A stretch of DNA of 62,998 nt, filler included, from Dugesia japonica (lineage: Eukaryota), in the NCBI GenBank assembly GCA_001938525.1. It is 6 parts of 6 records of this genome, joined end to end, with 100 filler letters (N's around TTAATTAATTAA, not from the genome) between each part and the next. Parts side by side here need not be neighbours in the genome. Positions count along the whole stretch, not along the records: positions 12,025 to 22,103 come from MQRL01634024.1; 5 more parts are not named here. The stretch is one strand, 5' to 3'. The stretch's first letter is position 1. Each line of letters opens with the position of its first letter. The position numbers were made by a program, and so were the translations under genes. Positions 7,611-59,689 of this stretch are shown piece after piece. The notes beneath the pieces were generated by a model. That model did no database searches. It was given only the letters and a program-made list of their open reading frames with translations, and had not been told where the DNA came from.

Positions 7611-9840
7611 CTACTTAATACTATCATGACCATATGAGACACTGTTGTTTTCATCTACCCATACGCGCTTATCGTCAGTGTTTGTTAGTGCTAATTTGTT
7701 TGACTTAATGCTAAATGATTGATAATTTTTGGTGGTTATCCTAAATTGTTTCACCGAGACCGATTTGTTCTCATTATAACAGTCAAGGTAAGACTGATGC
7801 AAAATTTCTGTGTTCTTCAATGTTATGCCTTTTGCTCTCATGCTATTCTTATCTCTGAGCAGGCTATAGCATTTTGGCCTCAAAAATACTCATTCTTGAT
7901 GCTTCTTCCCTTTATTTTCGTCTTTGAATTTCTCTATTACTGAGTTCATACTGTTACTATAAAAAGCATAATCTTTATCATAATTCGAAGTATCAAGAAG
8001 CTGATCTCTCACTATATTTGCTGTTATAGTTTCTAGTTTAATATTTTCTATGTCTAGAAAAAATCTATCTGTATCGCCGGCTACAATATTAATTTTACAA
8101 TTATATTCCTTCCTGTATTTGGCCAACTCAATGTACTGAAGTTTGTACATTCTCAATTTTGAGAGGTCAAGTACAGTTTGTCCTATGTAGCTCGGACAAT
8201 CTAAACAAACTATGTCCTTATTGAGAAGAACAACAATTAAATCATCAACCATTTTTGTAGTTTGCTTAAATCCGGCTTTTGATGTATATGTAATCAGTTT
8301 CTTTGCTGAATTACATAAGCACAGATTGATCCGGTTCTTGAGATTATCCACTGAGTTTCTATATAAACTGTTATTTAATAGTTTAAATTAACTTTTCTCC
8401 AATTTTGTTACACAACTTGATCTGAGAATTGTGTTTGTATTTATATAATTCTCAAAAATTGAAGCCTGGCTGAATTTAACTCCTCAATAAACCTCTGTTA
8501 CTTGAACCCCTAAACTTAAATACATATCTAGCAACTCCAGTGCACTACGTAATTGTTATTGGAGTAGTGCGTTAACATTAATTTCTTCACTTTACAACCT
8601 GTAGCTCTTCTATGTTCTACTGCAACCGGTAAATCATTCAAATAATCATGAATCTCTACTGGAATCACCATATTCACCTCTAGAGTGTATCCATATGACA
8701 ATGAATCTAGGTTTGCATTCTTACACTCTTCCAAAATCATGTCTAATCCATCATAAACCCATTCAAAGTTAGCAAAGGGCAACTTTTGACTAAGTGCCCA
8801 GCCATATAGATTATTAATATCTATATACAAAAGGTAAACATTTTCACTAGTGAGGATATGGTGTTTGTTAACAAATGTTAACCCTCCTCTTATACCTCCT
8901 TCAAAATAGGTATACATATCATTAACTTGGAGCAACTCAATTGGTTTTTCTAATGATATCAACGCAGATGCCCATGACATTCCAGGTATTCCGAAAAAAT
9001 TCAACGGCTCCAAATTGTTGTGTGCTAAAGACTTTGCACGGAATCCAACTTGAAATATAAGATCATATAGTCCAGCAAATTTTTGCAACTGAATATTTCC
9101 CGCACCGATAATGCTTTCTCATACTCTTCCCTACTAACTTAATCCCATTTTGGTGGTATTTGCTTTGTTTCTTCCAGAACCTGTAAGCTCGTTGCAAAAC
9201 TGTACGGAAATATCCCCTTTGACTTGGTAATAATTTTATTCTTAAACATCTCTGTAGTCAAAGGTGTCGCTTTTAAGGATTTGACAGCAGAGTCCAATAA
9301 AGACTTTTTGAAATGATAGCTGTCGATGAATTTAATTGTTGTTTTATTTTGTCATACAATTAAACATAGAAAATTTTTGATGTTGTTGGGATGCATGGTA
9401 TTGCCCAATTCTTGAACTTGTTAATACCATACTTAAGGATATGATGAATATCAATTCCTTGTAAATTATGAAAGACCACTGGTAGTTGAATATGCAATTT
9501 TCTGCTTAGGTTGCATTGGTTGCATGCTGCTCCTCTATATTTTCCTGTGAAATGATCATGGTCACGAACGGGATCTTTTATTTTCTTGTTACATAAATAA
9601 AAAATTTTGCAGCTTTGAATTCTTTATCACATCTTCAAAAACGTTATCAGTTTGGAGCAACGGCTCCATTTGATATCTTACAGGTTTTAAATTCCTCTTC
9701 TTCTCCATCAGCAGTTTTTGTTAACCTTTTGAACTCAACATGTACCCCAAATTGAATTTTAACTTGTTTCATTTCTTCTATTGCCTGAAATAATTTTGCA
9801 ACTATTGCTTTTGGTAACATTTTTTCACGACAATTCAATC
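7611..9840 (-). pseudogene. Protein-primed family B DNA polymerase (pPolB) with N-terminal EndoVII-like motif
   Basis: Motifs in order: DPVRDHDHFTGKYRGAACNQCNL; VVFHNLQGIDIHHI; IKFIDSYHF; KGIFPY; GIRGGLTFV; motif A YIDINNLYGWA; motif B KLLNNSLY; motif C AGDTDRF; LRPKCYS, RAKGI, DDKR. Many frameshifts. Confidence 0.92.
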
Positions 9841-14137: not shown

Positions 14138-14960
14138 TGCAAGATAGATTTATTCTTAAAACAGACCATAAAGTTATCACTTTTATGCTAAATACCAAGA
14201 AACCGATCACATTACAGTTTCAAACTTGGATTAATTACTTGAGCAGTTTAGATATAAAACTGGAATATAGAAAAGCATCGTTTCATACAAATCCGTATAT
14301 ATTGTCAAGGAGTAAATACGATACATGTGTACAATGTCTAATGTCACATGTTATTAAGATCCCAAGAGAGGAAAATTAAAAACAAGGATGTTATATACAG
14401 TAGATATACAAACAAAGCAAGGTAATTTTGGAGAAAATGATGAATAAACATGGATAACCGATGATAAAATAGAAGAGGTTATAATGAGGATACACCATCT
14501 GTTATGTCATGCTGGAGCAGGAAAAGTAGCAGNATATATAAAGCATNAATATAACGCGAAACATTTGTAGAGCAAAGTACAAGAGGTTGTCCGAAGCTGT
14601 ATAACATGCCAGAAAGCTAAAGTGTTGTCTACAAAAACGAAGGAAGAAACGAAAATGACACAAGACAAGATGAAGATACCATACGGAAGGCAATAATGGG
14701 GAAGTGGATATTAAAGTTCGGGTGTCCGAGAAAAATGCAAGTTGATTGTGGAAGAGCATTTGAATCTAAATCAATGAAAGCTAAACATGGAATTACTCTC
14801 AGGTTTTCGAGTTCATATAATCATAATACAAATGAAAAAATCTAGAGGCAGTTTAAAACTATGCGAGATATGATAAATATGACGCTTAAAAAAAGGAAAA
14901 CCTCAGATTGGGTAGATGTATTACCAGAGATAGAATTTACCTTGAATGCTACAAAACAGT
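14137..14960 (+). mobile_element. Ty3/gypsy pol remnant (RNase H C-terminus and integrase)
   Basis: RFILKTDHK...WINYLSSLDIKLEYRK...ILSR; integrase HHLLCHAG; MQVDCGRAFES; DWVDVLPEIEFTLNAT. Confidence 0.85.
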
Positions 14961-15385
14961 CTATCAATTTAAATATAATGGATGTAACGCCACATACATT
15001 GAAGAGACTTCCCGTCATCTCTGCACCAGTGTTCAAGAGCATAATCGAAATAGAGCAAATACTAATTTTGTTGAGCATCGGAGAAAATGTATAAAATCAA
15101 TAGTGTTTTCTGATTTTAAAATCATGTGCAGTGGGTTTAATAATTATTGGGAGAGAGTGGTGTGTGAAGTTTTGTTGATAAGAGCAATAAATCCTAAAAT
15201 TAATGTTCACTTGATGGATTCAACATCGCTCTTAAAATTNTTTTATTGATTATTTATTGAGATTGCATAATTGAAATTATATAATCACTTAAACTTTGTA
15301 AATAGTTTGTTTTAATATTCTTTAATTGCCTGATGATGACGGTTATTCCGTCAAAATTGATCGCAATTAACAAATATTTTAAAAA
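14955..15385 (+). mobile_element. Penelope-like element 3' end (GIY-YIG endonuclease and pLTR)
   Basis: VYQFKYNGCNATYIEETSRHL..SVQEH...EH...ERVVCEVLLIRAINPKIN, followed by a hammerhead motif. Confidence 0.85.
15322..15370 (+). ncRNA. Minimal type-I hammerhead ribozyme motif (G12A mutated)
   Basis: ttaattgc CTGATGA T GACGG ttatt CCGTC AAAA ttga TC gcaattaa: perfect 8-bp stem I and 5-bp stem II. Confidence 0.75.
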
Positions 15386-15558
15386 ATAGTGTTCAATTAT
15401 TTATTTAAAATGCTGATATTTGATATTTTCCGTTTCAAATATAAATTTTTAAATTTGTTTGAAATAAACGAATTAATATTTAGTTTTTGTTTTGTGAATA
15501 AATCTTTCATGGAAACGAGTTTTGACATTAATTACGCGATGAGTACTTGTCACTCATC

Positions 15559-15612
<54 letters not shown>

Positions 15613-16598: not shown

Positions 16599-16760
16599 AA
16601 TAATTTTACAATTGGAATTATTGCGATAATAATTGTTGGACGTGACCATTGATCGTTTTTCAGAATTCATTTAAAATAAAAGCTTCGATCAAAAATTGTT
16701 TTCTTGGTTTTTTGATAATAATTTTATATTTTGACTTTGTCTTCGGTAGGAATTGATTAA
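16599..16760 (-). repeat. Copy of the hammerhead-bearing dispersed repeat (core mutated)
   Basis: Reverse complement of the 17775-17932 unit. The core reads aattc CTACCGA A GAC aaa GTC AAAA. Confidence 0.75.
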
Positions 16761-16849
16761 TACATTTTTTACTCTTAATTTTTCAGTGGGGGAGGCACAA
16801 AATATGAATCTTGTCCCCGGGCGCCAAACACACTAGCTACGCCTCTGTT

Positions 16850-17134
16850 ATAGATGTAATGAAAATTTTAGTAAAGTCATAAAAATTGGACAAGATTAAG
16901 AATAAACTTCGTGGTCAACGGTTTCAGACCCCAGAGGAGGCAGTAGATGCTTTTAAAATGGAAATTTCGGCCGTCACAGCTGATGAATGGAATAACTGTT
17001 TTAACAGTTGGTTTGAACACATGCAAAAATGTGTTAATCTTGATGGAGAATATTTTGAAAAACAATAAAACATTTTGAGTCTTTTTAGTCTTATTTTTAT
17101 GGTTATATGCAGAACTTAAAAGACCACCTACGTA
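16850..17134 (+). mobile_element. Mariner 3' end with TIR
   Basis: KIKNKLRGQRFQTPEEAV...WNNCFNSWFEHMQKCVNLDGEYFEK; terminus ...aagaccacctacg-TA. Confidence 0.85.
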
Positions 17135-17781
17135 TGATTTTAATTTCTCTATTTTAATAATTGGAAAATTTATGTAAAATGGTTAATGACCATCTTAAAT
17201 TAAATTTTGGCTCAATCAAAATTTTCGACTACTGGAGACATTTTTTTGTGTATATATTAAACTAAATATTTTCTTTGTCCACAATCCTCATTTTGTATAC
17301 GAGAATAGTGAGGATGAAAAATAAGCTGATCATACGACGTAGCCTGTGTTCCTGTGTAGTTTTAAGTGATAGTTTTCCAAAATCTGTCTTTTTGTGCCCG
17401 TGTAAATTTTATATTTCATAAATATGCCAGACTACTTAAAAGAGATTGCCTACCCCTGATATAATATATAATATACAATAAATTATTAAAAAATTTCATA
17501 AAGTATAAACTATTAAACTTCCTTTCAAAATGCTTCATACGAAATAATATCGATTTTATTTCAATAATTTATTTTATTCTCACCTGATTATAAGCAAATA
17601 CATAAATAAATATTGTTTCAGTAACACGAAGTAAGGAAATGTCAAAATAAAAATCTTTCTTTTGGAATTTTTCATTTGTTAATTAAATGGCACTATTANN
17701 NNNNNNNNNNNNNNNNNNNNNNNNNNNNNNNNNNNNNNNNNNNNNNNNNNNNNNNNCAAAAATTGATAATTGAAAAAAGTC

Positions 17782-17816
17782 AATTCCTGACGAAGACATA
17801 GTCGAAAATTAGAATT
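17782..17816 (+). ncRNA. Minimal type-I hammerhead ribozyme motif with intact core
   Basis: aattc CTGACGA A GAC ata GTC GAAA at TA gaatt: stem I aattc/gaatt, 3-bp stem II, palindromic AATT in place of stem III. Confidence 0.7.
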
Positions 17817-18064
17817 ATTATAAAAAACAAAAAAAACAAAATTCTATCGAAGCTTTTATTATATTTTAATGAATTCTGAAAAACGATGGTTACGCCCAAC
17901 AATTATTCTCGCAATAATTGCCATTGTAAAATATTTATTATATTTGAAAAATACTAACAGAACTTTAAAAAAAACATTTATTAACATCATAAATAATTTA
18001 TTAAAATCATACAATAAATTTATCAATAATACTGGCCAACGTCAAATTTGTTATCTAAATTTTT

Positions 18065-19029: not shown

Positions 19030-19187
19030 TCTCAATAATATAATTACAATTATTGTGAGAATAATTGTTGAATTTAACCGTTTGAGATTTCATTTAAATA
19101 AAGAAAAGGCTTCGATCAAAATAAAATGAATTTCTATAAAAAATACATTTTATTTTGATCGAAGCCTTTTCTTTATTTTAATGAATG
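19030..19187. repeat. Fold-back (inverted) copy of the dispersed repeat family
   Basis: aaataaagaaaaggcttcgatcaaaataaaatg ... cattttattttgatcgaagccttttctttattt. Confidence 0.85.
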
Positions 19188-19213
19188 CTCAAGAATATTA
19201 TAATCAAATTACT

Positions 19214-22203: not shown

Positions 22204-24050
22204 AAGGTGCTTGCGTTTTGAAAATAATTCTTGGATTGTATTTGAGTTTAGAATTTTTTATTTATTTCATTTTGGATAATTTGGCTACATTTCTCATTGA
22301 TAAAAGTTAATTTACAAACTGTGTTTGTTTTTTAGTTTGATTTGATGTTATGTTTTGTATTTAAAGAAAAATATTTTGATATAATTTTATTTGGGGAGCC
22401 GTTATTTAATATAATATAATATAAATAATATAAAAAAACAAATAAAGTTTTCGGATCATTTTTTTTCAGAAACAACTTGTAATCTTTAATGAAACTTTTA
22501 TGTATAACTTTGATAACATTGCTTTAACTAATATTATCATTCAAACAATTTTGTGCAATTTAAAATAATAGATCAATATTTAAAAATTAAGAGTTTTTGG
22601 AAAATATTTGTTCACAATTGGTTTCAAAAGTTAATCTTAAGATTTTTTGTAATAACTAATTGCCATTTTTTACTACTTTATACTGAAGCATTTCCTCACA
22701 TTTTTATGTTAATTTATAACAATAGTAGTGTATATGGTAATATAAGTATATATTAATGGTGAAGGTGGATTCATTAAAACCTTAATATTCAGATTTTGTT
22801 TTTTTTCTATTTATTCAAGATTTCTAAAATTTTTTTTCAATAGCTTTTATTATGAAAAACTTTATTTTAATTTTATGTCAAAATTGAAAAGTTTTGCAAT
22901 TAAGAATTTTTTCTTGTAGGAATTCAAGTATTTTAATTAAATTGTTTAAATTAATTTTTAGTTTAAAATTCAAAAAATGATAAGTTTTTGTTGAATTCAT
23001 CAATAATTTTATTGCTATCTATTCACAGGGTTGTTCCAATGGGTACAAAACATAAATGTATTGTGTTGTATTTTGTTTATTTGGTGTATTTGGGTTCATT
23101 GATCTATTTGGTTTGATGAAAGCAAAACAATTTATAGGTATCTAATATGGATTATAACCTTTTAAATCAATTTTCAATATACAAATCGAAATTAAATTTC
23201 ATAGAATTTACATGTAAATGTAAAGTTCGGTATGTAACAGAATCAACATTGATTGAATTCGTTGAGAAAACAATTTTGATATATAACAGAGGTACATGAG
23301 TATAGCATCATTAACTAAATTTCAAATTACACAAATGGCAAATTACAAATTACAAAGAAATAAAATTAAATTACAAAACTGAATTTTAATTTGTTCGAAA
23401 TTTTTTATTTTAATGAAATTAGAAAACTGAAATTAAAAATGTAAAATTAAAATTTTAAAATTAAAATTCAAAATAAAAATTGAAATTATAAACTAAAAAT
23501 TTAACTTAAAAATAAAAAATTTTCAACAATTAAAACAAATTAATTTAGAAAAACCACACAGAAGCAAAATCGGAAATTAATAGCTAAAGTTNNNNNNNNN
23601 NNNNNNNNNNNNNNNNNNNNNNNTGGTATTTTAATTTTATAATTGATTGGGAGCAAAATTTTTCAAAAGTAAAATTTTAAGTATTTTGAAACAGTTAAGG
23701 GATAAATAAAAAATCAATGCATGAAAACTAAAGAAATCCAAAATTGAAAACAAAATAAATAGATTCAATTCATGTGGGTATAAAAATTATGTAGATCATC
23801 GGTTTCTAAGGATGACTTATCCTTATTCTGAGACAAAGAACATAAGCAATTGTTTCTCTAACTCTCAGTGCTTCTTAAAATTTTTGCATTCATGACCTCA
23901 TTTGTATCATGAAGTTTTTCACGACTTATTGATTGCTAAATAAAACATAAGTAGACACACATAACTCATTTATTTCATTTGAACAATATATAAGTAAATC
24001 ATAATTTTTGTTAAAATAAAAGTAGCATTAAAATTTATTTGAAATACAGA

Positions 24051-25788: not shown

Positions 25789-26992
25789 TTAGGTCGACAC
25801 ATAAGTTATGTCGATTATTACGGAAAACTTTAAACAACAAAATGACACAGTATATTATTTAAATACATAGGCACTATTGGTTTCTACAATGTCTCTCTAT
25901 CTTAATAAAAATTTACTGGCTTGGAATCGAAAAATTCTTAGATAGCAATATTTAAAGCTTCATAAGAAACGAATCTTTTCCCGACCAAGAAATATTGCAT
26001 TGCCCGGAACAGGTTGTAGTCAGAAGGTGCAATGTCCGGACTGTATGGAGGATGAGAAAAAAGTTCCTAGCTAAAGTCGGTAATCTTCTGGTCTGTCTTC
26101 TTTGTGGTATGCAGTCGTGCATTGTCCTGATGAATAATGACTCCATTTCTGTTTGCTAAAGCTGGGCACTTGTTTTCAATTTCATTTTCCAATCTCTCCA
26201 ACTGAGCACAAAATACATCCGCGGTTATTGTTTCACTAGGTTGCATCAGCTCGAAATGAATAATACCCATAGCCAACCACCAAACACTTAACATTACGTT
26301 TTCGCCATGAACATTTGGTTTCGCAGTGATTGTAGGTCTTTTGCAAGGTCCATTGCCTTTTACGACTGCAGTTGTCTACATAACCAATTTCTCGTCACCA
26401 GTTATGATACGATTCAGGAAGTTTTCATTTTTTTTGGAAATGAACATTTTGCATATTGGAATCCTCTTCTTCTTTTGGTCATGGGTAAGTTCATGAGCGC
26501 CCATATTCCTACCTTGCTTTCTTTACCCATTTTTTAAATGTAGGCGAATTATTTCTCTATTGATTCCTAATTGTGAACTCATTCCAATCAGTGTTTAACA
26601 TGGATTTTTTTCAATCGATGCCTGTATAACGTCAGTAACCACAGTCGGCGATCTGCCCAATCTAGGAGCGTCNNNNNNNNNNNNNNNNNNNNNNNNNAAT
26701 GGGAAAAACCATTTCTATCATTTTATGACATCAACAGCATCCGGATAGATTTGGTTAATTGATTTTGCAGCCTCTGATACCGTTTTATCATAATAAAATT
26801 CGTAAATCATACAATGTCGTATGTGATTTTCATTCGCATTTAATACGTATTCATCAATTTATTCGAAAACTATTTAAGCGTTAACTTACTTTATAAAATC
26901 ACCAAAAACAAATAGTTTTGACACATTTAAACAATTTAATAATTGATTGAATATGAATTATTAAAAAACGACATTACTTATGTGTAACTATA
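25789..26992 (-). mobile_element. Near full-length degenerate mariner (cecropia-like) with both TIRs
   Basis: TIRs ttaggtcgacacataagttatgtcg / cgacattacttatgtgtaactataa. Motifs IWALMNL (degenerate WVPHEL region), VTGDEK, MLSVWW, HQDNARLH, SPDIAPSDY. Confidence 0.9.
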
Positions 26993-28711: not shown

Positions 28712-29240
28712 GGTAAATTAGTTTTATGCTAATTATCGAAATAGTGTTATATTAATACATTTTGACTTACTTTTAACAGCAATGAGTTACATAAATGAGG
28801 TATTATTTATTTTGAAAATTTTTTATAACATAATTTTCTTCGCCATTTTAAAAATAAATTTTAATTCAAAATGTTTTAATAAATTTTATTTATCAGTAGT
28901 TCTCTGCCAAACTTGCAAAAATTTAATATACATNNNNNNNNNNNNNNNNNNNNNNNNNNNNNNGAAATTTTTATTTACAAATTTGTTTAAATTTGCAAAA
29001 AACATGGATATTCAAGGAAATTTTTAAGAAATTAGTCATTGAAAACTTAAATCCATCGAATTCAAATTAGTGGATATATAGTAGCGCATTGGAATGGTCC
29101 CATTTTAAATAATTTTTTTAATAAAATTAACCAACATCAGGAATTGTGTACCACCAGCTAATTTTTTTTAATTATTTTTCTTTTGTTCTTGAAAGAATTG
29201 ACCATAAATAACTTTATAATTTAATTTATATAATTAATTA

Positions 29241-29415
29241 TTTCATTAAAATGAAAGCTTCGATCAAAAATTTTTTCTTAGTTCTTTATAGTATTTCAAT
29301 ACTTTCAAGAACTAAAAAAAAGTTTTGATCGAAGCTTTTATTTTAATGAAATCTGAAATACGACCAATGGTTAAGTCCAACATTTATTGTCGCAATAATT
29401 GTAATTGTAAAAATA
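29241..29415. repeat. Fold-back copy of the dispersed repeat family
   Basis: tttcattaaaatgaaagcttcgatcaaaa...ttttgatcgaagcttttattttaatgaaa, followed by the shared acgaccaatggttaagtccaac...tcgcaataattgtaattgtaaaa tail. Confidence 0.85.
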
Positions 29416-35120: not shown

Positions 35121-36611
35121 TTAATTACTGATATTTGCAGTCGCTGTTAATGGTTTCATCATACACTTTTTCTTGTGATAATTATATGAAGCGTTCCAAA
35201 AATAACCCTTGCCGCATTTTTCACAACAATATTTTGCTTGATCTGAATGCTTACCATCAAGATGTTGTTTGAGACTGATTTTCGTCATGAAACGACTTTC
35301 GCAAAAGTCGCATTCAAAAGGCTTTTCGTCTTGCAATGTGTTAGTTGGAGTTGGCGCGACTGCACCTACTGGAAGAGTTTGTGTTAACCCAACATTATCT
35401 GAATTTGATAGAACTGGAAAACTCGGTAAAGTGGGAGCACTAGTTGAATTGGGGATAAAATTAGGAATCACAGAATGAACGGAAGGACTCGTTATTCCAC
35501 CACCATTGACAGTTTGTATGTTGGAAATTAATGTGGGATTTTGCATTGATTTATAATCAATAATTTTTTGCAAAATCATTGCTCGAGCGGAAGCAATACA
35601 TGTACGCTTATGTTCATACATATCAGTTATTATAGTAGTTTTAAAACCACAAAGACATTGATCTGGAATTTGATGAGAAAATACTTTTGGAGATTGCTGG
35701 ATACGAGATTCATTATGATTAAATGAAGTACTGATAGTAGAATAATTGAAATTTGTTTTCTTTCCGTTATTAGAATCTTGTGAATCGTTTAAAGCTAATT
35801 TCCTTTTACTACATTGTTGTTTATGAGTATAAAATTGTGGAGGCCAACGAAAACGTCTACCACAATATTCACACTCGTGTCTAGGAGGAAAATGCAAATG
35901 TTTATGTTGATCAAGAAGACCTTTAGATTTAAAGTTTTTTTCACAGTGCTCACATTCATAAACTTTACCGGTTCGTTTTGGTTGATCTTGACTGTTTGGA
36001 GAAGAAGTATGTATAGATATCGGAAGACATGCTTTTTCAGAATGGGAAGAATAATCCACGTTCATAGCATTAATAGAATAGTCTGTGATAGGAGTTTCTT
36101 TACTTTCATTTTTTACAAGATTTAAAGGATTTGCGTAATCTAATGGCAAATCATCTGAATCGTCATTTTGAATTGGTGTTTGTTCAGTAGAATGTGTAAG
36201 CGGACTACGAGATTCAAATACGGGTTCTGATGGTTCTTTTTCTTCATCTTGTATACTTTCACTTTCTTCGAATTGCTGCTCATCATTGAAGCTGTTTTGT
36301 AAAAGATCTGTAGCAGCAATTGGACATATAATATAGTGTGCCAGAAAATGTGACATGCTATTAAAACACTGATTACAAGTACAAGGAAAAGTTCCACTGA
36401 GGTCATGACATTCATCAAAATGATTTTCAATTTCTTGTTGACTTGAAGACATGTATTTACATTCCGGACAGACGAATCTATTCACAGCAATAAGACTTGG
36501 TGTATTTTCCTGATTCATTGTAGTTGAGGAAGAACTAGAATTTGAATTGGTATGTTTTTCGACAGAATATTGCATAGTTGCAGAATCATTTGGTGATTCT
36601 TCTTTTACTTT
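35121..36611 (-). CDS. Zinc-finger transcription factor, large terminal exon (C2H2 + C2HC finger pairs)
   Basis: 484-aa ORF with 7 fingers, e.g. CEHC..F..K..L..H..LH-PPRHECEYCGRRF....H...C. The frame extends to a TTTAG acceptor near 36612 (KVKEESPNDSAT). Candidate first exon MTDVLNAGSRKM|GT near 38465-38500. Confidence 0.9.
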   Translation of the reverse strand, partial: KVKEESPNDSATMQYSVEKHTNSNSSSSSTTMNQENTPSLIAVNRFVCPECKYMSSSQQEIENHFDECHDLSGTFPCTCNQCFNSMSHFLAHYIICPIAATDLLQNSFNDEQQFEESESIQDEEKEPSEPVFESRSPLTHSTEQTPIQNDDSDDLPLDYANPLNLVKNESKETPITDYSINAMNVDYSSHSEKACLPISIHTSSPNSQDQPKRTGKVYECEHCEKNFKSKGLLDQHKHLHFPPRHECEYCGRRFRWPPQFYTHKQQCSKRKLALNDSQDSNNGKKTNFNYSTISTSFNHNESRIQQSPKVFSHQIPDQCLCGFKTTIITDMYEHKRTCIASARAMILQKIIDYKSMQNPTLISNIQTVNGGGITSPSVHSVIPNFIPNSTSAPTLPSFPVLSNSDNVGLTQTLPVGAVAPTPTNTLQDEKPFECDFCESRFMTKISLKQHLDGKHSDQAKYCCEKCGKGYFWNASYNYHKKKCMMKPLTATANISN

Positions 36612-41485: not shown

Positions 41486-41580
41486 AAAAATTCCGAAACG
41501 CCATTTCAATATATATTTTTGTGCTACTGTCGAAACAAGTAGTACAAAAATATATATTGAAATGGTGTTTCAGAGTTTTT
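41486..41580. repeat. ~45-bp-arm palindrome (hairpin or micro-MITE)
   Basis: gaaacgccatttcaatatatatttttgtgctact ... agtagtacaaaaatatatattgaaatggtgtttc. Confidence 0.85.
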
Positions 41581-43160: not shown

Positions 43161-45629
43161 ATACAACTGCCGAACTTTATGAAACACTATCACTCTTTTA
43201 AGCATATTATATTTGATGAATTTTAGTGCAATTAATTCATTTTAAATAACTTAAGAAAAATTATAAATTTATGAAACTTAAGAAAATTAAGGCAATTAAT
43301 GAAAATTTAACAAATCATGATAAAATTAGTCTACATTTTAATGACGTATTTTTACATTTTAAAAAAATTGCTTATAAACTTAGTATATATTTATTAATAT
43401 TTTATGAAAATCTATAGAAATCATATAAAATCAAGTTATTTAAAAAAATTAAGACTTAAAAAATTTCATACTTAGTTTTATTAGTTTTCTTCATTTCAAT
43501 CAACTAAAATTGAACTTTTGATTCAATACTTTATTTAAAATACAAATAATTCTTCTTTGAAATTTTTCTTGCTTCTTGAACGCTTCTTTCAAAACTTGCC
43601 TTTCCCAATTTAAATTTATTAAATATAATACATTTTTTTAAGTTTATTATTATTTAAAAATATAAATAATATAAATTTTAAAACCTCAAGTAACTAGGAT
43701 AAAGAATTAGTTGGTCATTTATCATCCATCATCACCATCTGCCTGCATTTATTCTTAGACCTCTGCCTAAAACTCGTCTGTCATTCTGTTTGCACTTATA
43801 TTTGTTATGTTTATTCTTACTTCTAAAATTCAAAAATCATCATTTCAAGTAATTTTTGGAAACATTTCCTTCACTTTTATGAAACAGTTTGATTAAAATG
43901 AATAAAATAGTATACCTTATTCCTTCTCCATCTCGTTATTTTCTAACTTNATATTATAAAGATTTTATNTGATGGCTTCTATTTTAACGATATAAATATT
44001 AAAATTCAACCAAGCATGTTATACTTGCATTACCCAATCAAATTCATACATGTATACACACCTAAATTTATATCACTTGTTTGGCTTTATTCTTGTTAAT
44101 AATAATAATAATAATAATAATACTAATAAAAATAATACTAATAATGATAATAATAATAATAATAATAAATTTCGGTCTTGGTCTTAGTAATAATAATAAT
44201 GTAATTTCCACTTATGGTATCTGTTTATATTTTTATATGGTATGGCATATTCTTTACTGTAAACTTCATAAATCATTTATGAAATTAGTAAAATTAATGA
44301 AGAACTAACTAACATTAGGGTATGAATTATTGTGCTTAATGCATATTATATTGGTATAAGTCATTATTGTATGTTGTATTGAATCTAGTGTATTACTGCT
44401 TAAATTTAAGTGTTTTGTTATGAATTAATGAAAGCTAGTATATTATAATGAAAATCAGTCTATTTAAATGAAAATTTGATTATACTTTTGAGACATTAAT
44501 GCCCATTTATGAGAAGGGTGGATAGACGATGATGAGAGATGTATAGTTTGTGGGAATGGATTTATGGTAACTCTTAATAATGCAACACATAAGCTGAATA
44601 GGACTTTTAAGCAATCATTTGTATTAAGATTAAACCCATGTGTTTTAGTAAAATCATTGGATATAGTAAGCAAGTAGTATTTTATCACAGTGTAAGACCA
44701 AATCATTGGAATTGAGTAGATACTGAAAGCTAATATAATGCAGTGAACTAGTGAACCAATAATTATGTAATATTTTATCAAAACGTTTGATTGAATCAGA
44801 AAATTCAAATAAATTATTTAATGTATTGCAATAATTTATTGATATTTTAATAGTTTTAATTTATTATCAATGTAATTTTATTATTTCTTTTTGATTTTCA
44901 GTTTTTCAATGTAAATAGTTTGTAAAGTTTTTAGCGCTTATTTTTAAAAGTAAATCAAAATTTATATTACAAAAATCATTAAAATTTGAAATTTATTCAA
45001 ACAATCATAAATTTAAAATAAAATATTAAGTTTTGAAATTTAATGAAAATGAATTAAAATTTAACAGAAGAAATAAATTATTTGGAATTTTTAGCTATAG
45101 GTCCTTTGGACCATGTATAGATAACTTTTTATTCTGATTATTATGATGCAAAATTTTAATTCATGCGATTAGTTTTGACTGAGAAAATTCTAAAACATTC
45201 AGTTACAGTTCACTACTAACTGTTCAGCAGAGAACACAGCATATTTATATAATAAACCCTATATAACAAATGAAGAACTTTTAATAGTAAATTCAATCTT
45301 ATACGATAATTTTTGACTGAGAAATAAATTATTTAAATTTTTAATTAAAAACTTTGACCTTGATTTTTATATAGAAGAAAGCATTTTCAGAAGTTTTGCA
45401 TGAATATGTTCTTGATTTACTTTTTAATTCTCTATAAATGGTATTAGTTTCGAGTTGAAATCATCTAAAACACTAGAGGGAGGTAGAACCTTTTCTGAGA
45501 GAACCAAGCATATANNNNNNNNNNNNNNNNNNNNNNNNNNNNNNNNNNNNNNNNNNNNNNNNNNNNNNNNNNNNNNNNNNNAAGTTCAATTTCTTTGATA
45601 ACATATTTTTTTGAATATCATGTATCGAT

Positions 45630-45800
45630 TTCAATTATTGCGAGAATAGTTGTTGGACTTAACCACTGATCGTATTTGAGATTTCATTAAAATAAAGGCT
45701 TCGATCAAAATTTTTCTTTCTTTTTTTATATTTATTTTTTTCAATTCATAAAAAAGACAAAATGGAAATTTTAAAATACTTTCAAGAACCAAAAAAAAAT
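45630..45800 (-). repeat. Copy of the dispersed repeat family, without the ribozyme core
   Basis: caattattgcgagaatagttgttggacttaaccactgatcgt...cattaaaataaaggcttcgatcaaaa. Confidence 0.8.
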
Positions 45801-48107: not shown

Positions 48108-48155
<48 letters not shown>

Positions 48156-49100
48156 GTTCATTTAAAAAAAAACTTCTATCAAAATTTGTATTGAAATAGT
48201 ATTGATATTTTATCAATAACTAGAAAAACAACAAGAAACTTTGACCAAACCTTTTAATTTTATGTAAACTTCAAGTTGTCAACATATAAATTGATATCAT
48301 TTAAGTTTTCTTAATTGAATAAAAATAAAAATTGCGCAGATTTGCTATATTATTTCGTTTGATCAATGCAAATAGTATTATATTTTATTAGAGTACCGTC
48401 TTATAGTTGTGATTTTTTCTTAATTTAATTATGTCTTTCTTTGTGTATAAGATGCGATAATAAGAAATGTGTATCTTTTGAAAAGTTAACATAATTTGTC
48501 TTCTTATGTTGTAGATTGACCCCAGTCACCTAAAAGAATACCAANTATTTAATTGTATCAAACATTTATACCGAGTTTTTCAAGCTATGCCTTAATTAAG
48601 ATATTGAGTCTTTTAATATGTTTATTTTGAGTTCTCGTGTTTATTAATTATTTACTTGGGATAATATTTATCACTGGAAAATTAATAATAATTATGTTTT
48701 ATAATTTTTTAAAATGATTTAAGCTATAAAAATTTGTAAACAATAATAATTTACAATAATTTATAAATTATAATAGTTTATAAATTAATAAAAATTGGTA
48801 AACAAATTATTTAAATTAAATTGAAAACTTTTGATAAAATTAAAATTGGGCTGATTTACTCAATAGTATTTAATTTATATAAACGGTCTACAAATAAACA
48901 ATCACAATTTTTTTATTATGTTATATGTTATGTTATAAATAATATAAGTTTTTAATATTCTAATTTACAGTCAGTTAAAACAGTTTAATTTACAAAACAA
49001 ACAATATTGAGCCAACATTTAAAGCTGAAACTACCGTTAAGTAGAAAAGAAAAACGTTATGCAAAATTTCTTCAAAGGCAAATAACACTATTAATGAAAC

Positions 49101-49364: not shown

Positions 49365-50251
49365 TAATAAAGTTTTAAGTTGAATTAACTATATGTAGAC
49401 TTAATAATTTATTATTAATCTATTAATCTTTACTACGTGATTAATTATGATTTCTTTGAATTGGTTTTGAATGTTTATTTATTTTTCTTTTTTCCAATTT
49501 TCGATTTCTTTCAACAAATTATAAAAAAACAAACTAAAATTTAAATTCGCAATAAACTTAGATAATAACTTTTTTTTAAAAAAACAATGATAAATTGTTT
49601 GAAAAAAATATAAATGACGCCATTTAAAATTATATTATTGAACAAAATTCTGAAAATACTCTGAATACAAATTCTTATGGGTATAAAAACAAATATTCTA
49701 CGTTACAAAAATTTAGAAATATGATAATGCAAAATACTCAAGAAAAACACGATTTTATATGTTTTTATTTATGCTTTGTTTAATTGGAAATCTTTTTTGT
49801 TTTATTAATGGTTTAATAGTTATTTTAAAAAATTCAAATAAACTACAGTTTCTCTTATTTTCATTATTAATTGAATTAATAAGAATAATAAAAATAAATA
49901 TTTGGAAAAATATTCTTCAAAATATAATANAAATAAAATATATAATATTTTCATCAATAAATTTTTCGTTCTTTTTGAAAGATAAAATTTGATTGAGTAT
50001 TTCCTTTATTTCTTAAAAATATTTAATATTTGCTAATTATTAATATATTTAACAGCTTCTATAATTAACTAATTATTTATTTTAATAGTTATAATAAATA
50101 ATTATTGATAAAAAATATGTAAGTAAAAAGTCATAAAATAAAAATTAATCATAAGCAAATATTTATTTTGATTTTAGATAATAGAAATAAATTTTGTTTG
50201 AAACTTCAAAATTATTGTGTTTGTATTTTAAATTAATTATAATGTTTTTAG

Positions 50252-51227
50252 ATGCAATAATCGCCGAATTCAATGGATATCAATTTATGAGAATTAAATT
50301 TCCAAATACATACAAATCAGAAGTGGAAAGTTTTAAATTAAGATTTAAATCCAAACTTCCAAACGGGCTTATTTTGTCTACTCAAAATCAGTTTTCTGGT
50401 AACACTGACAAACTGGAAATATTTATGCAAAATGGCAGTATTTACATTTTAGTAAATTTTGGAAAAGGAAATAAAGTTAATTTAATTATATTTTATCGTA
50501 AAATTTAAAATAATTAATAATAATAATGACCGTTTTTTGAAAGAAAATCAGAGGTGTCAACAAAAAATTTTTTTTTAATAATGCTGTACAAATGTAATGA
50601 GTAACATAATTTCTAAATACTAATGACCTCTATTGTTATATTTCACGGCTTCACAATCAAGTGAAATATTATATAACAATAAATAATTGTTTGAGTAAAC
50701 TTAATTTCAGAGAAGTGAGAAATTTCAATATTTTTAATAAAAAAAAATAAAAAATTTAATCAGATTCTTTCTTTTATTATCCAATAAAATTCAGTTAATC
50801 CAGATAAAGCAAATATTCAAATCAAATAAATGGTTATTAGATTGTGTGACTCACATGTTGAACACCCGTGTTATGCAATTTTCTTAAATTAAACAAAGTT
50901 TTTTGTATTTGATTATTTCTTGCATTACTGCCATCTGTTAGTTATTAGTTTTTAATAGTGACATCTGTTCATATGTACATTGCATGTGCATCTCATCTTA
51001 TAGTGTTAATTGTTGACGTTTTTGACTCTCCCCCCCAGTTATCATTTATATATAATGTAAATATTATTATTTATAATAATAATCATAAATAATTTAACAA
51101 TAAGTTTTGATTATTAAGAAATTTAAAACAAATGAAAATTGTTTTGATGATAAATGGCATTCGATGAAAATGGAAAGGCAAAAAAAGAAATTAAAAGTTT
51201 GGATTGATGAAAATTTTTATGAATTTA
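50252..51227 (+). CDS. Two exons (50252-50475, 51119-51227) of a laminin-G/LNS domain, neurexin-like
   Basis: AIIAEFNGYQFMRIKFPNTYKSEVESFKLRFKSKLPNGLILST...DKLEIFMQNGSIYILVNFGKG | ...FDDKWHSMKMERQKKKLKVWID resembles alpha-neurexin LNS4. Confidence 0.8.
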
Positions 51228-52108: not shown

Positions 52109-53375
52109 ATTTATGATATGAAATATGATATAGCGTTCCGTGATCTTTTAACTTTAGCAACATATAATGTTATATTTCTTTTAATTGATGAATGGTATAG
52201 GCAAGTTGTGTTTGTTTCCCCAGAATGAATTTAACTGTATCACTTTTATTCTCGAATTCTTCTCCTACCTTTATCGTACCTACGATTTCGACAGGGCTAT
52301 TGTTAGCACATCTAAAATGATCTTCACTTTTTAATATATTGACTTATCTAAATCTTTCAAAAATTTTCAAACTCATCACATTAACTCTTGCTTCAGTGTC
52401 TAACAAGCAATCAACTTTTACATCTTGTATTTCAACTGTTATACTTGGTCTACCTGGAATCTTGTCATACATTATCAATTGTCGCTTTCTTTTTTCTATC
52501 GTAAGAATTTCATTGCCGCCTTCTTAATTTATACCATTGATCATCTTTAGTTGGCCTCTAATCAAAACGAGTTTCTCTAATAACTTTTCCTATTACATCA
52601 TTGTACTCATCTACTCGTTTATCCTCCTTTCTTAGCGATTTTTGGGGATTCTTAATTCAACACTCCGACAAATTCGACTTCGGTCAGAGCTTTGCCATTT
52701 GAGTATTCATCTTTATAAATATTGGTCCTTTTCTACATTTAAAATATCTTCCATTTTTCTCAATTGAATTAACGTGACATACGTTTCTTCTTGTGTAATT
52801 ATACATATTGTTCGGATAATATCTTTGTTTGCCATTTCCGAATTCTTTTCTGACATGACCACTCTTATTCGGATAAATAAACTGCCTGCTCATATTTGAG
52901 TAACAATCCTCTGTGGTGTCTTTTCTTGTTGCATCTTGAACAACTATCTTTGGTACAATATCTTCTTAGGTGTTGTTCAGACCCACAAGCATAGCACTTT
53001 TTTTCTATCTAGACAATTTCTGCTTAAAAGACCAATTTTGTTACAGTTCCCACATGTGATTTCTCGTCTTTCGTTATTTATGTTCCGCGAACAGTATTAC
53101 TGTAACTACGACTACATTTATTTCTTCAGTTTTTACTTCTTCTTTTATGTCTTCCCACTCTTTTATTGTTTTAAATAATTCTTTTACTTTGTCAATTTTT
53201 ACTGATTTTATCTTATGTTTCATCTTACAGTCATTGAAACTATTCATTATTAGCTCTTTTGTTAAATCATCTTTGTTTCATTTATGAGCTAATAACTTCG
53301 CTACCATTTCTTCTATTTTCTTCTTATAGATACTCATATGCTCTCAATTTTCTTCCTCGTCGTTGCCATTAATCA
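52109..53375 (-). mobile_element. Ty3/gypsy gag-protease remnant
   Basis: Several decayed CCHC knuckles (ITCGNCNKIGLLSRNC; NKSGHVRKE; YFKCRKGPI) and protease DVKVDCLLDTEARVNV. Confidence 0.8.
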
Positions 53376-53384
53376 TTTTTCAGA

Positions 53385-53473
53385 ATTCATTAAAACAAAA
53401 CCTTCGAACAAGTAATTTTTGTGTTTTTGATAATAATTATAATTTTTGACTTTGTCTACGTCAGGAATTGACT
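53385..53473 (-). repeat. Copy of the hammerhead-bearing dispersed repeat
   Basis: Minus strand gtcaattc CTGACGT A GAC aaa GTC AAAA at TA taatt...ttgttcgaaggttttgttttaatgaa. Confidence 0.75.
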
Positions 53474-53609
53474 GTTATTTATCAAATTAAAAAATTCTCC
53501 AAATATCCATTATCTATGAATTACTCTTACAATCTATCTGGTCGTTAAATCAAATATATTGATTGTAGGTTTAAATTTTCTAATCAATATCTTGATGTAT
53601 AAATCTATG

Positions 53610-54696: not shown

Positions 54697-57099
54697 AAAT
54701 TAAAACAAACGTCAAGTTTTACGTAAAATTGTTTCAATTATTTTAATTTAAAATCTACATATCAGAATAAAAATAAAAATTTTACAAAAACTAAGTAATT
54801 TTTCGCATATTCGGAATTCGGAAATTTGAAAACTAGAAATTTAATTTTTAACTTTTTGAGTTAGACAAAAAGTAGCACACAAAAAGATAGATTAAATTAA
54901 AGTTTTTAGTCTTAAAGTTAGTTATCTGAAAAAATTAATATTTTATTTTATATTCATTACGAAGAACAGTAGTTTCTTATGACTTTTATATACTAGTTTA
55001 AAGAAAATAACAAATTTATAAAGTCTGGTGTTCTAAAATATGGAAACAAAAATAAGAGAAAATAAAGTCAATCAACTTTTTATCAAACCAAAAATATTTA
55101 TTAGTGATAAATTATTATGGGAAATAATGTTTTTTTTAGATAAATTTAATGAAAAAATATTAACTTTTAAAAATAAAAAATGACAACATTTGTAAATTTA
55201 AAACGAGAATTAAAATATATTATAACAAAGTGAGGAATCTAGAAACAGGCATTTAAACTATGATAATTGAATCACAAAATGGATGAAACAATACATCTTT
55301 GTAGGTGATATTTTATTTTTATACAATAATGTATTAACCGTTATAGACTAACGTCCCATTTGTCGGACAAGTACAATAATTTTTTTATGTGTATATATAG
55401 CATATTCTGATACTCCCATGTTCCAGAATCCTATTTGTAGGGCAGTTCAAGATCCAATACTGGAAAGAGATAAAAAATTGTATTTATAATAGACGTATAT
55501 AAAAAATTTAATATCAACATATAAATAAGTTTGGCGTTGAGTTAAAGATTTTTCTGTTTAACTTGACCTTAAATATTAGGTCTTTTAACCAAAAAATCAA
55601 TAATTGAAACGCGATAGAAACTCTTAATAAATTAACATTTTGTAAAGGACACAAAATTGCACTTTACTAATTTCATTTGATTTCGTGGTATTTTCCTAAA
55701 CTTTTCCTCAAAAAAAGCTACATAAATATCTGAACACTTTCTAATAATTGCGAATACATAACTCAAGTGAGTGAAAAGTTAAACCTTTTAATAAAAATCA
55801 TTTTTTTCAATATGAAAAACCATACCAGATAGGGTGGTTCGTGTCAACACATTAATTGGAAATAAAGTTTCCAAATAGTTTAAAATCTATGAGAATAGAG
55901 TGGCTAAATAGATGGGAAACGTTTTGAATGAGAATAGTTAAGAAAATTTAAAGAGATTTGTTCCAATAATACGTATAACAAGCAGACATTTCATTAATTA
56001 CTTTTAGTAATTGATTATATATTATTCGATTATGAAGATGGATGTAACTCCGTAAAATGAATTAACGTAAATTGTTTCTAAATGAATAAAATGAGATAAA
56101 ATACATCAAATCTTGGTATATTTAGATGATCAATATTATTCACAGTAACTTATTTTTTCACATTAATTTCAAAACAATTTAATTCTTTTCAATAGCTTTA
56201 TTAATTTTAAAGTTCAAACATTTCACTGTAAATATTTTTTAATTATGACTGATTTAAATTTGAAGTTTTCTTTTCGCTCATCCCAAAGAATAATACTTGA
56301 TATAAATATTTTAAAGATTTTTCTTTTGATAAAAAATAAAATGCTATTTTAAACAAAATAATATTTTTTCAAATATTATAATTATTAACTGTACAAAAGT
56401 GCTTTATAAATTTCGGAAAATATTCATAATTATACCATGTTAAATCAATTTTGTACGTCAGGACAATTTCTACTAAATTTCATATATTGAAAATATCATC
56501 ATAGCTTTGACAAAATAAAAGTTCATAAATATAATAAATGAAAACAATTTATTCATTAATAAATGTTGGCTCGATTTATGGAAATTTCCAATTTTCAACG
56601 GTATCATATTTTCATCTATGACATATAAAATTACCGTACAAATATCAGGACAGTGAAATGTGATTTATTACATGCGGATCTGTATTAATTCTTCAAACAG
56701 GTATTTCCAAATTCTATGTTTGAATCATGGTAAATTTAGTGATGTTTGAAAGATAACTTACAGCTATTTTAATTGAAAACTTTTTTCCATGAAATTCTAT
56801 TTTTTCAATGAATGAAGTATTAAAACTTATTAATTGTCTTATTGTACGTTAAATAATATCAGATGATTTCCATCTTGGGTAACATGATATCAAATTTAGC
56901 TAAACAATGAATATTTCCAAACAATATGCTCATTTTAATTAATATACCCATATTAATAATATGTTCATTTTAAAAAAAACTTTTGGTATATTATTTAATA
57001 TTATGTCCATCCAAATACTGTACAAATACAATATAACTATTTTACTGATAAAGACATTATAATAATGGAAACTTGATTTCAAATGTCTTATCAATTCTA

Positions 57100-57420
57100 T
57101 TCTCTGTCTATTCTCTGACAGCATTTTTATTGGTGAACAACTTTTTAAACAAAAAAGTGGTTTGACAATGTATAAAAATTTGTCTCCTATTTTAACAATA
57201 ATTTTTATGAACTTCATTCAAAATAGAATAACTCTCAAAGCTAAGAAGATACAACTTTGGATCAGATATATAGACAATATTTTTTTTGTTACTAATTCTC
57301 CTTTAGACAATATTAATGAAGTCTTCAAACACCTTCAACACAAACATAATATTTTACCAGAAAAACATCATATTTCATGGTAAACATTAGTAACAGGCTA
57401 CATTTCTACACTTCTCAGAA
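57100..57420 (+). mobile_element. Decayed Penelope-like RT fragment
   Basis: FKQKSGLTMYKNLSPILTIIFM...LWIRYIDNIFF resembles Q..G..MGSPLSP.LANIFM...W.RYVDDIF. Confidence 0.7.
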
Positions 57421-58113
57421 AAAAATAAACAAATATTGATCTAAGAGGATAAACTTAAGATCAATGTGATTTTCAATTATTGGCATAATTTTTTAAAACT
57501 TTCCTACCTTTAATAAACTAAAAATGTATACAGAGATTTAAATTTAACATTCGGCTACAACAAAAAACATTGTTAGAATTGTTAGTTGGGTTTTGAAAAC
57601 TCATCGAAGAGTTAACACCAGAATTCCAATTCATTACCACCATTTAATAAAATAAAAACTATAACCAACAATCTTTGTTAATCAAACAAATTAAAATCCC
57701 GTGTTTTAATTGGTGATCTTTTTTCTAAAATTAAAAATTGAAACTTTTATTTATTAAAAGTAATTTAATTTAATTCACCTAAAATCATTTTATTTATTGA
57801 TTTAATTTTCATTAAAAATTTACGAGAAAATTTTCACTCACTTTTAAAATTTTATTTATTAAAATTAATTTAATTTAATTCAATAATTNNNNNNNNNNNN
57901 NNNNNNNNNNNNNNNNNNNNNNNNNNNNNNNNNNNNNNNNNNNNNNNNNNNNNNNNNNNNNNNNNNNNNNNNNNNNNNNNNNNNNNNNNNNNNNNNNNNN
58001 NNNNNNNNNNNNNNNNNNNNNNNNNNNNNNNNNNNNNNNNNNNNNNNNNNNNNNNNNNNNNNNNNNNNNNNNNNNNNNNNNNNNNNNNNNNNNNNNNNNN
58101 NNNNNNNNNNNNN

Positions 58114-58195
58114 AAGGTCGAAATATCGAATTGTTATCCAATATCAATAAAAAACCAAAATTTTGATCAAAGCTTTTATATTAAATGGAATATTT
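58114..58195 (+). repeat. Copy of the hammerhead-bearing dispersed repeat (5' half in gap)
   Basis: GTC GAAA ta TC gaattg ... ttttgatcaaagcttttatattaaatg. Confidence 0.7.
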
Positions 58196-59589
58196 GTTTA
58201 TTTAAATTTTTCATCAATAATTTAAATCTCTCTTAAACAAAAGATTTAAAAATTAAGACCACCAATCACACAAAAAATTCAACTTGCTTTTCAAAACACC
58301 TCACAAGAATAAAAAGTAACTTGGTTGTTGTTAAAGTGCACCATTATACTTCAAGACAAATTTATTGGACAGCACTTATTTTATTACATTAATAATAAAA
58401 TACTGGTTTCAATCCAGAATAAATAACATAAAATAATCTTCACATTTGATTCACAACATTAGCTACATTTCTGATAAATTTCTATAATTTTAGAAAAACT
58501 TTCAATATTCATGAAAAAAATTCACCGAAATTTTTGATAAATGGAGAATTTCGGTTTTTTCTAGAATGGAATTAGAAATTGAATTTTATTAATTTAAAAA
58601 ATTAAATAAAATGTATTTATGATAATAGTGTAGTACATTTTCAATAAGTCAAAATATTGTTTTATATTGAGTTTTTCAACTTCTTCATCAGAGATTATTT
58701 GTCCACCAATTGTAATTGTAAAAATAAAAATTTATACTAAAACAAATGACTCAACTTTATTCTTTAGAAATAAATTAATTTTTGGCTCCAGCAAATCACG
58801 ATTAGAATAATTTCTATTTTTATACCTAAAAGATATTTAAGATATTCATTTTTAAGGACCAAATTTTCCTCATTTTGAAAAAAATATTTAGAGAATAATA
58901 TTTATTGTAATCAAATTTGTATTGACACTCTGTTTCAGCTTATTTATAAAAACTTTGCCAATTACTTATTAGATAATAAAATATATACATCATTTATAAA
59001 TTCATGTCAAAAGAAAATTTTTTGTATAAGTTTCGATTCTTGGAAGAATATGTACTGTAATTATTTTTTTTAATACTTAAAAAAACTTTATATACTTAAA
59101 GTTAAATAATGCTTACTAAATAAATTTATAAAGTAATGGGATTTTTAATTTATATACAAAAATTATGCAGTTTAACTGAGCTCTGAAGTCAAATCAGTTC
59201 AATTGAAAAGGTTGATAAGTTTATAAGCTATAACAACTTGGTAAAATTAAATCAAACTATACCTAGACAATTTTATATTTCAAAAAAATATTAATTTACG
59301 ACTTTAGCCCGAATCACATTTAAAACTTTGACATTTCATGATATAAATAACTAGCATATATGACAACGGGTGGTTTTCTAGTTCTATCATTACTATCCAA
59401 CAACAGACCAGTTCAAAAATCGTGCAGTATAATTATATTTTCAACAATAATTTATTATATGATAAAAGTAGACATTCAAAATTACTAAGTTATAAATAAT
59501 TACGATATATTTTTAAATTAAATTGATGATTAAAGAAATNNNNNNNNNNNNNNNNNNNNNNNNNNNNNNNNNNNNNNNNNNNNNNNNNN

Positions 59590-59657
<68 letters not shown>

Positions 59658-59689
59658 ATTTAACACGCTATTTAATTAAATATTTATTT

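Follow-up and report, generated by a model that had tools for sequence, protein, structure and literature searches.

We identify a dispersed 160-bp repeat of the Dugesia japonica genome as, very probably, the pseudo-LTR (pLTR) of a Penelope-like element (PLE), that is, the leader of the element RNA, comprising its 5' end, a minimal hammerhead, a 5' UTR and about 20 codons of the open reading frame (ORF). This reading follows from the homology between the tail of the unit and a PLE ORF, the sharp ends of the unit, its two alternative 3' ends, its inverted tail-less arms and a compensatory change in stem III of the ribozyme. An abundant, seemingly anonymous short repeat is in this way tied to an autonomous partner through its tail peptide, which is useful for annotation.

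The window, that is, the whole stretch of 62,998 nt that was analysed, consists of six AT-rich scaffolds (~24% GC) with artificial spacers at 11925, 22104, 32790, 42865 and 52009, the joins being recognised as N44-spacer-N44 breaks. Of the 24 listed data sets, four served for a survey of the family, namely, two contig sets (X1 and X3) and two RNA runs; they were aligned to positions 17757-18040 at 80% likeness, which brought 13,801 and 10,533 contigs from the two sets to the unit region. The copy at 17775 is organised as follows:

17773..17931, + strand: whole unit, very probably the pLTR, with tail, of a C-terminal-endonuclease (EN) PLE; no ORF seen adjoining
17779..17791, + strand: competing hairpin of the predicted minimum free energy (MFE) structure, in which the 5' strand of stem I and the first core bases are tied up
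17782..17816, + strand: type I minimal hammerhead, which fits the published descriptor of minimal hammerhead ribozymes (min-HHRs) at the lower limits for stem II and loop 2
17817..17868, + strand: putative A/U-rich 5' UTR, from the ribozyme to the first ATG
17869..17931, + strand: PLE ORF start, with ATG at 17869 and 17886; the 17775 copy is without 4 nt after 17885
17900..17920, + strand: hairpin of 8 bp in the tail, a perfect 8-bp inverted repeat with a pair probability of ~0.95 (ViennaRNA)

The hammerhead motif and its predicted folding

The stems, CUGACGA and GAAA boxes and palindrome of the hammerhead that the preliminary description had placed in this unit were all located at that position. 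Stem I comprises 5 bp (17782-86/17812-16) and is followed by CUGACGA (17787-93), an extra A (17794) and a 3-bp stem II with a 3-nt loop (17795-97/17801-03), in which G17795-C17803 corresponds to G10.1-C11.1; GAAA (17804-07), the palindrome AATT (17807-10) as stem III and a UUA triplet complete the motif, and cleavage is predicted after A17811. The motif agrees with the min-HHR descriptor in its CUGANGA and GAAA boxes, NUH triplet, helix I of at least 3 bp, helix II of 3-7 bp and loop 2 of 3-10 nt, and shares with min-HHRs the extra base (A17794), the G10.1-C11.1 pair and a palindromic 15.2-16.2 with compensatory change. The strict descriptor has its sole match in the window at 17787 and none in 300 dinucleotide shuffles, and the relaxed descriptor finds 3 sites in the window vs 1 in 300 shuffles. 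An Rfam scan of the window at E≤5 returned no hammerhead and five weak unrelated matches.

Stem III had been said to vary and yet remain palindromic, and this was observed in all four readable copies (AATT in 17775 and 53385, ATAT in 16599 and 58114) and as a swap across the genome. The changes 17808 A>T and 17809 T>A reach 10.1% and 10.2% in X1 and 11.3% each in X3, and because they occur together in the loose ends behind 17807 (80 and 60 contigs with the linked change, and 8 RNA reads), stem III exchanges AATT for ATAT as a whole. This compensatory change suggests that the ribozyme was probably under selection in master elements. Among the variants listed, no difference of at least 5% falls within 17780-17798, and G12>A reaches 8% of the family in the contig sets, as expected from CpG decay. 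The word 'intact', which the preliminary description applied to the ribozyme, is accurate for the 17775 copy and not for the other named copies: a visibly intact core is found in 1/7, and copies 16599 and 53385 carry core substitutions.

Thermodynamic folding disfavours the hammerhead: ViennaRNA gives stem I a probability of ~0.003 and stem II of ~0.09, and the MFE structure of the dimer pairs the arms of stem II, not those of stem III. The z score for folding of the whole unit is -1.94. The hairpin at 17779-17791, for which no variant of at least 5% appears among those listed for the family, could act as an off-switch of the ribozyme. No pile-up of cleavage ends was seen in the two RNA runs. 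From its sequence, we consider the hammerhead credible and self-cleavage predicted.

Extent, abundance and copies of the unit

The 5' end of the unit lies within 17773-17780 and its 3' end at 17931, and an N gap begins 17 nt upstream of the unit. Loose ends accumulate before 17773/17774 (185+163 contigs in X1, 123+146 in X3) and behind 17931 (225/229 contigs), and the flanks beyond both ends are unrelated (agreement 0.43-0.47), with better agreement (0.65-0.69) at break points inside the unit in the contig sets. Contig depth drops ~180-fold from 17777-86 to 17757-66, and the 5' boundary coincides to within a few bases in four window copies. In the contig sets, head-to-head joints begin at this 5' end. 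At the other side, there are two alternative 3' ends, ~60 nt apart: the segment ~17874-17931 is an optional ~60-nt tail that is missing from the inverted arms. In X3, a go-back joint 17920>17886 reaches a depth of 194, which points to a subfamily in which a segment of the tail is duplicated, and the last ~40 nt of the tail are matched in isolation at 58699-58740, 500 nt downstream of copy 58114.

The unit is highly repeated in the genome. Its core depth, summed over contigs, is 6.1e5 and 3.3e5 in the two contig sets, vs 9.3 and 5.7 for the contig of its own locus, although summed depth is not copy number and contigs unlike the query align less often. The raw ratio is ~6e4, which short-contig overlap may inflate up to ~30-fold, and we take the genomic copy number to range from 2e3 to 7e4. 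A very abundant family is also in keeping with the nine loci counted in 60 kb.

The preliminary description counted at least seven copies on four scaffolds. All seven proved homologous (blastn E 3e-40 to 5e-6, pairwise identity 65-86%, on 4/6 scaffolds), and a profile built from them gave 12 matches in nine loci of the window, two of which are additional and weak, and none on the reversed window. Besides the 17775 copy, the loci are the following:

16604..16764, - strand: full-length copy (16599), core decayed, ATAT palindrome, tail frame open
19036..19192, no strand assigned: palindromic copy (19030), 5'-truncated, consisting of a minus-strand arm with most of the tail and a tail-less inverted arm; without ribozyme
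23387..23429, + strand: extra short fragment, which ends at the first ATG; weak (blastn E 3e-4, nhmmer E 0.08)
29240..29412, no strand assigned: palindromic copy (29241, below 29240), consisting of a tail-less inverted arm and a direct arm with tail; without ribozyme
45627..45800, - strand: copy (45630) with 5' inversion, in which a decayed ribozyme in opposite orientation (45741-45797) is followed by the 3' part
48155..48270, no strand assigned: extra palindromic copy (48157), decayed, next to a microsatellite of (ATA)n (blastn E 5e-6 and 5e-7, nhmmer E 0.07 and 0.48)
53360..53476, - strand: copy (53385), core decayed, AATT palindrome, which ends near the second ATG
58114..58192, + strand: copy 58114, tail-less, ATAT palindrome, AUC triplet, 5' half in an N gap

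The inverted arms of 19030, 29240 and 48157, as well as some direct copies, end at the first ATG and are without the ~60-nt tail. Target-site duplication was clear in one of the seven insertions tested, weak in two (8 and 22 of 300 controls) and absent in four; copy 29240 is flanked by a perfect 12-bp direct repeat, a score that 4 of 300 random AT-rich flanks equal. The palindrome centre of copy 29240 (29296-29297) lies 1-2 nt from the predicted cleavage position, a single case read by eye via copy 45630. An origin of the inverted copies at the cleavage site was considered and is not supported: 29240 fits it but 19030 and 48157 do not, and 0/6 listed opposite-strand joints lie at 17812. A possible inverted arm at 56950-56982 is too weak to use.

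The ORF-start tail and its Penelope-like partner

The repeat had been described as non-coding, which fails for its last ~60 nt, since these encode the N-terminus of a Penelope-like ORF. The corresponding protein, P0001, comprises 843 aa with a reverse transcriptase (RT), as well as a GIY-YIG domain at its C-terminus (GIY-YIG E 2.8e-4, 1 bit below the Pfam cut-off; RVT_1 at the cut-off). It was retrieved by the RT remnant at ~57066 alone, as the 1 match among 23 candidates (E 1.4e-27); because the tail played no part in this retrieval, the link between tail and P0001 is independent evidence. The first 18 residues of P0001 match the peptide read from the terminal ~60 nt of the unit, and residues 2-18 agree with five tail peptides in 12/17, 12/17, 11/15, 11/13 and 10/16 positions. 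When the first 25 residues were searched with tblastn, the five best window matches were the five tails (E 1e-8 to 4e-4; the next match, 0.086), and the match between tail and P0001 was reached by 0/300 shuffles for each of the three tails tested. The same N-terminal motif is carried by P0005, which is 36% identical to P0001. The 4-nt insertion after 17885 is seen in the family in the contig sets.

P0001 comes from a Logan contig, is known as a protein alone and may not be from the same species; no DNA for it or its relatives was found in viral contigs or prokaryote genomes. Because its N-terminus matches the tail, the unit can be read as a pLTR with hammerhead, 5' UTR, ORF-start tail and inverted tail-less copies, and the earlier suggestion of a solo pLTR mobilised by a Penelope RT is supported and gains a partner in P0001, whose N-terminus the tail encodes. 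P0001 retains the CCHH residues C760, C763, H782 and H793, as well as DKT and CxCx5C; its linker is CX3CxC, and the CX3CxxC type occurs in its 32-34%-identical relatives. P0001, P0002, P0004 and P0014 form a C-terminal-EN PLE group in which CCHH is intact alongside a CX3CxCX5C linker and DK[T], with motifs intermediate between the published Nematis and Hydra sets.

Two broken remnants of the same PLE family are present in the window:

57075..57477, + strand: broken, internally deleted remnant of the PLE family of the unit, in which the RT core is joined to the endonuclease end (RVT_1 E 1.6e-4)
22205..22409, - strand: second broken remnant of the same family (thumb/linker), which runs off the scaffold end (tblastn with P0001, E 1.5e-15)

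The former is 73% identical to residues 484-565 and 68% identical to residues 788-824 of P0001. The statement that no copy is attached to an RT ORF calls for a qualification here, as copy 58114 lies ~640 nt downstream of this remnant, on the same strand and across a 225-N gap, a position suggestive of its being the 3' pLTR of the remnant. In other PLEs seen, the distance from ORF end to pLTR is ~80-220 nt vs the ~640 nt here, and we estimate the chance of such a neighbour, at about one locus per 6.7 kb, as ~1 in 20.

Two other PLE families in the window have hammerheads with a 5-bp stem II after endonuclease (GIY-YIG) remnants. One, at 59650-61200, has RT thumb, linker and GIY-YIG on the + strand (60165-61032, ~30% identity to P0001), a minimal hammerhead, decayed, at 61138 and, next to an (AAT)n tract, an inverted copy (59650-60177), with its ribozyme from 59727 on the - strand. 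The other, at 14890-15560, consists of a GIY-YIG remnant, a minimal hammerhead (15330) whose stem I spans 8 bp and whose changes resemble CpG decay, and then an open frame into (TAA)n. A scan for the ribozyme pattern gave 0 matches in viral contigs and six in metagenomes, none of the family of the unit: four of the six are without stem I and look like chance matches, L004 is doubtful and L002 is a real PLE ribozyme. The latter belongs to an unrelated element (L002:215-3705) with an apparently intact 765-aa RT ORF that has a GIY-YIG-like end (by eye); the hammerhead, with a 3-bp stem II and a palindromic stem III of 8 nt, lies between this ORF and the start of the one that follows.

The window also contains host coding exons, namely, a 496-aa C2H2 zinc-finger frame (35121-36611), a doublecortin domain (249-626) and a laminin G domain (50191-50508). 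Together with mariner remnants, these exons indicate an animal. Mariner-type transposase remnants are found at 26067-26375 (Transposase_1, E 1e-17), 16870-17070 (read by eye) and 61957-62331, and broken DNA polymerase B frames of the protein-primed type at 7611-9118 on the - strand (DNA_pol_B_2 E 8e-4), which we take to be perhaps a Polinton-like relic. A near-perfect long hairpin at 41492-41576 has sub-threshold microRNA-family scores (Rfam).

Origin of the copies and relation to known systems

If the unit is a pLTR, as we favour, the PLE protein would nick AT-rich DNA and reverse transcription would start within the RNA at either of two sites, as published PLE work suggests, giving rise to copies with or without the tail; by analogy with the Poseidon element PAc of Anolis carolinensis, the 17900-17920 hairpin is a candidate RT-initiation structure. 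The many ORF-less copies with one 5' end would be complete copies of a short leader. Because the cut is predicted 30-40 nt downstream of this 5' end, the full-length copies appear to have had uncut RNA as their template. Cleavage by the ribozyme is probably weak and would take place in a dimer formed via the 4-nt palindrome, with help from the protein of the element. Most genomic copies are best explained as decaying relics. For the solo copies, we give about even chances, taken together, to RT initiation on the mRNA at its first tail site and to short transcripts of solo copies; a strong stop in a truncated 3' pLTR is an unlikely source, and recombination between two pLTRs slightly more unlikely still.

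The explanation closest to this one, which differs from it solely in the origin of the solos, is that the copies are ordinary 5'-truncated 3' ends of full-length PLEs, or leftovers of recombination, with no short template involved; we consider this quite possible, if short of an even chance. The depth at the 3' hairpin, which when summed is 2.8-3.6 times that at the ribozyme core, and the 3-4 window copies truncated at differing points speak for truncation, as which most min-HHRs were read before (PMC4209133), and solo pLTRs have been ascribed to recombination or deletion (PMC3846280). Random truncation, however, gives no single 5' boundary of the kind seen in the ~180-fold drop, the unrelated flanks and the four sharing copies, whereas recombination between two pLTRs would give one. 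More tentatively, and in our view rather improbably, the family could be a self-propagating, SINE-like, leader-only derivative of Penelope, the hammerhead of which is held off by the 5' hairpin until the protein refolds it. Reverse transcription from the first internal tail site would then run off the uncut 5' end and place the 160-nt leader at ~10^4 sites, and the AAUU and AUAU subfamilies could be self-specific dimer classes.

The retrozyme that the preliminary description proposed would, like animal non-LTR retrozymes, be transcribed as tandem units and cleaved into monomers, which would form circles and be put back into the genome by a PLE RT; the length of 160 bp, low GC, type I hammerhead and high copy number are compatible with it, a few head-to-tail joints exist (17887>17776, 17928>17774 and 17917>17774), and a 2026 preprint derives retrozymes from pLTRs, so that some arrays could exist. 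However, the listed joints have depths of 9-18, corresponding to about one or two loci, none of the 54 TRF rows is a tandem array of the unit and 0/9 window loci are tandem, bearing in mind that short-read contigs can hide tandem arrays; furthermore, the unit does not end at the cleavage site and it carries a ribozyme of the minimal PLE type. Few RNA reads fall on the unit (73 of 10.5 M in one run and 132 of 11.6 M in the other, that is, 7-11 per million); they come from both strands, and 97% of them continue into unrelated sequence, with neither a pile-up of RNA begins or ends at the unit ends nor a discrete transcript in the two runs. This looks like passive read-through, although circular or non-polyadenylated RNA could be missed, given that one library is oligo-dT and would miss circles and the selection of the other is unrecorded. 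Because tandem arrays are rare and no discrete transcript appears in the two runs, we consider a retrozyme very unlikely. In run X19, 12 RNA reads cross 17774 upstream into an inverted hammerhead with a different N7 base and 5' flank, that is, a transcribed head-to-head pair. That the 17775 copy was kept intact as a host regulatory ribozyme would fit its having the only intact core in the window, and yet decay would be expected to leave a single core intact among several copies, the copy departs from the majority sequence of the family at many other positions and is 4 nt short, as an aged copy would be, and RNA depth at 17947-17986 is zero in both runs and at most one read further on, making this extremely unlikely. 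Finally, a DNA element (MITE, foldback or Helentron-type HINE) with hammerhead letters by chance would suit the sharp ends, the subterminal hairpin, the palindromic copies and the AT-rich targets. MITEs and Helentron HINEs have terminal or subterminal inverted repeats at fixed positions. Among the nine inverted pairs, however, there is no terminal inverted repeat, the palindrome centres differ between copies, stem III covaries, the descriptor is matched in 0/300 shuffles and, what largely refutes this explanation, the tail encodes a PLE N-terminus; we put its probability at next to nil.

A unit of this kind is already known: a 2014 paper described min-HHRs in the terminal repeats of Penelope elements, and the pLTR anatomy of the unit is published. 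The preliminary description had allowed that novelty would drop if the repeat were simply the pLTR of a known PLE, and a PLE pLTR is the reading reached here. The residual interest lies in the sharp 5' end upstream of the cleavage site, the helix II with 3 bp and a 3-nt loop and the many ORF-less copies, which make the unit a compact substrate for two points, namely, whether the template used for transposition is one that PLE ribozymes cut, and by what route solo pLTRs originate. If the leader-only route is true, internal RT initiation, known in vitro from one lizard element, would explain a major repeat class, and the family would be a genome-scale record of cut vs uncut templates and thus a test of the purpose of PLE ribozymes. 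Under the same reading, we would place the hammerhead of the unit among the smallest natural ones, with no claim to the outright smallest. Small PLE hammerheads that cleave as dimers were reportedly described by Lunse and colleagues in 2016 and may already include variants with a 3-bp/3-nt helix II.

Like the min-HHRs reported in the pLTRs of metazoan PLEs (Cervera and De la Pena 2014, PMC4209133), the motif of the unit is of type I, with an extra base between 9 and 10.1, G10.1-C11.1, a palindromic 15.2/16.2 and a short helix I, and those motifs, too, are mostly single and dispersed, with thousands per genome. Both palindromes, AAUU and AUAU, occur among the 56 examples listed in that paper, as does a helix II of 3 bp (C. 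briggsae); the helix II of the unit, 3 bp with a 3-nt loop, amounts to 9 nt, whereas the shortest among those 56 has 11 nt. With animal non-LTR retrozymes (PMC7229834; Li et al. 2026 preprint), the unit shares a short low-GC repeat, a type I hammerhead and a relation to PLEs, and it differs from them in being dispersed rather than tandem and in its minimal ribozyme, PLE ORF start and lack of abundant RNA in the reads seen. The literature mentions 'short, non-autonomous Penelope elements' in Heliconius; neither the family of the unit nor a leader-only route was found among the literature listings, read for the most part as listings, on solo or non-autonomous pLTR families and 3-bp stem II.

As for the partner protein, P0001 shares DKT and the CxCx5C linker with the Hydra clade and differs from it by the CCHH-type cysteines, which are absent in Hydra (Craig et al. 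2021); Nematis and Neptune have a CX2-5CxxC linker and CCHH, whereas P0001, compared by motifs, has CCHH with a CX3CxC linker. PLEs typically have inverted 5'-truncated copies and a one-sided tail (Craig et al. 2021, PMC8557442), and the Penelope pLTRs of Adineta vaga, of 193-218 bp, contain 12 aa of the ORF, or 22 aa with the tail, and also occur as solo pLTRs (Arkhipova et al. 2013, PMC3846280). The unit resembles these elements in the first ORF codons within the pLTR, the tail at one end, the head-to-head inverted copies and the solos, and perhaps in the short target-site duplication, which is clear in one insertion. In contrast to the ~200-bp pLTR of A. vaga, the unit has ~100 nt plus a 60-nt tail, which exceeds the reported 30-40 nt, and its solo copies are very numerous, as against 'several'. 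In the Penelope of D. virilis, the pLTR contains an internal promoter (PMC2377424).

A further parallel is PAc, in which two internal RT starts bound the tail and the hammerhead cuts only with the protein, cutting being unnecessary for insertion (Frangieh et al. 2024, PMC11167929). In the unit as in PAc, a hammerhead is located near the ORF start, the 3' ends fall within that start, the tail contains a stem-loop and uncut RNA is the apparent template; the unit differs in that its ribozyme lies ~60 nt upstream of the first ATG, which the ribozyme of PAc overlaps, and in that its 3' end is reached ~60 nt into the ORF, vs 111-118 in PAc.
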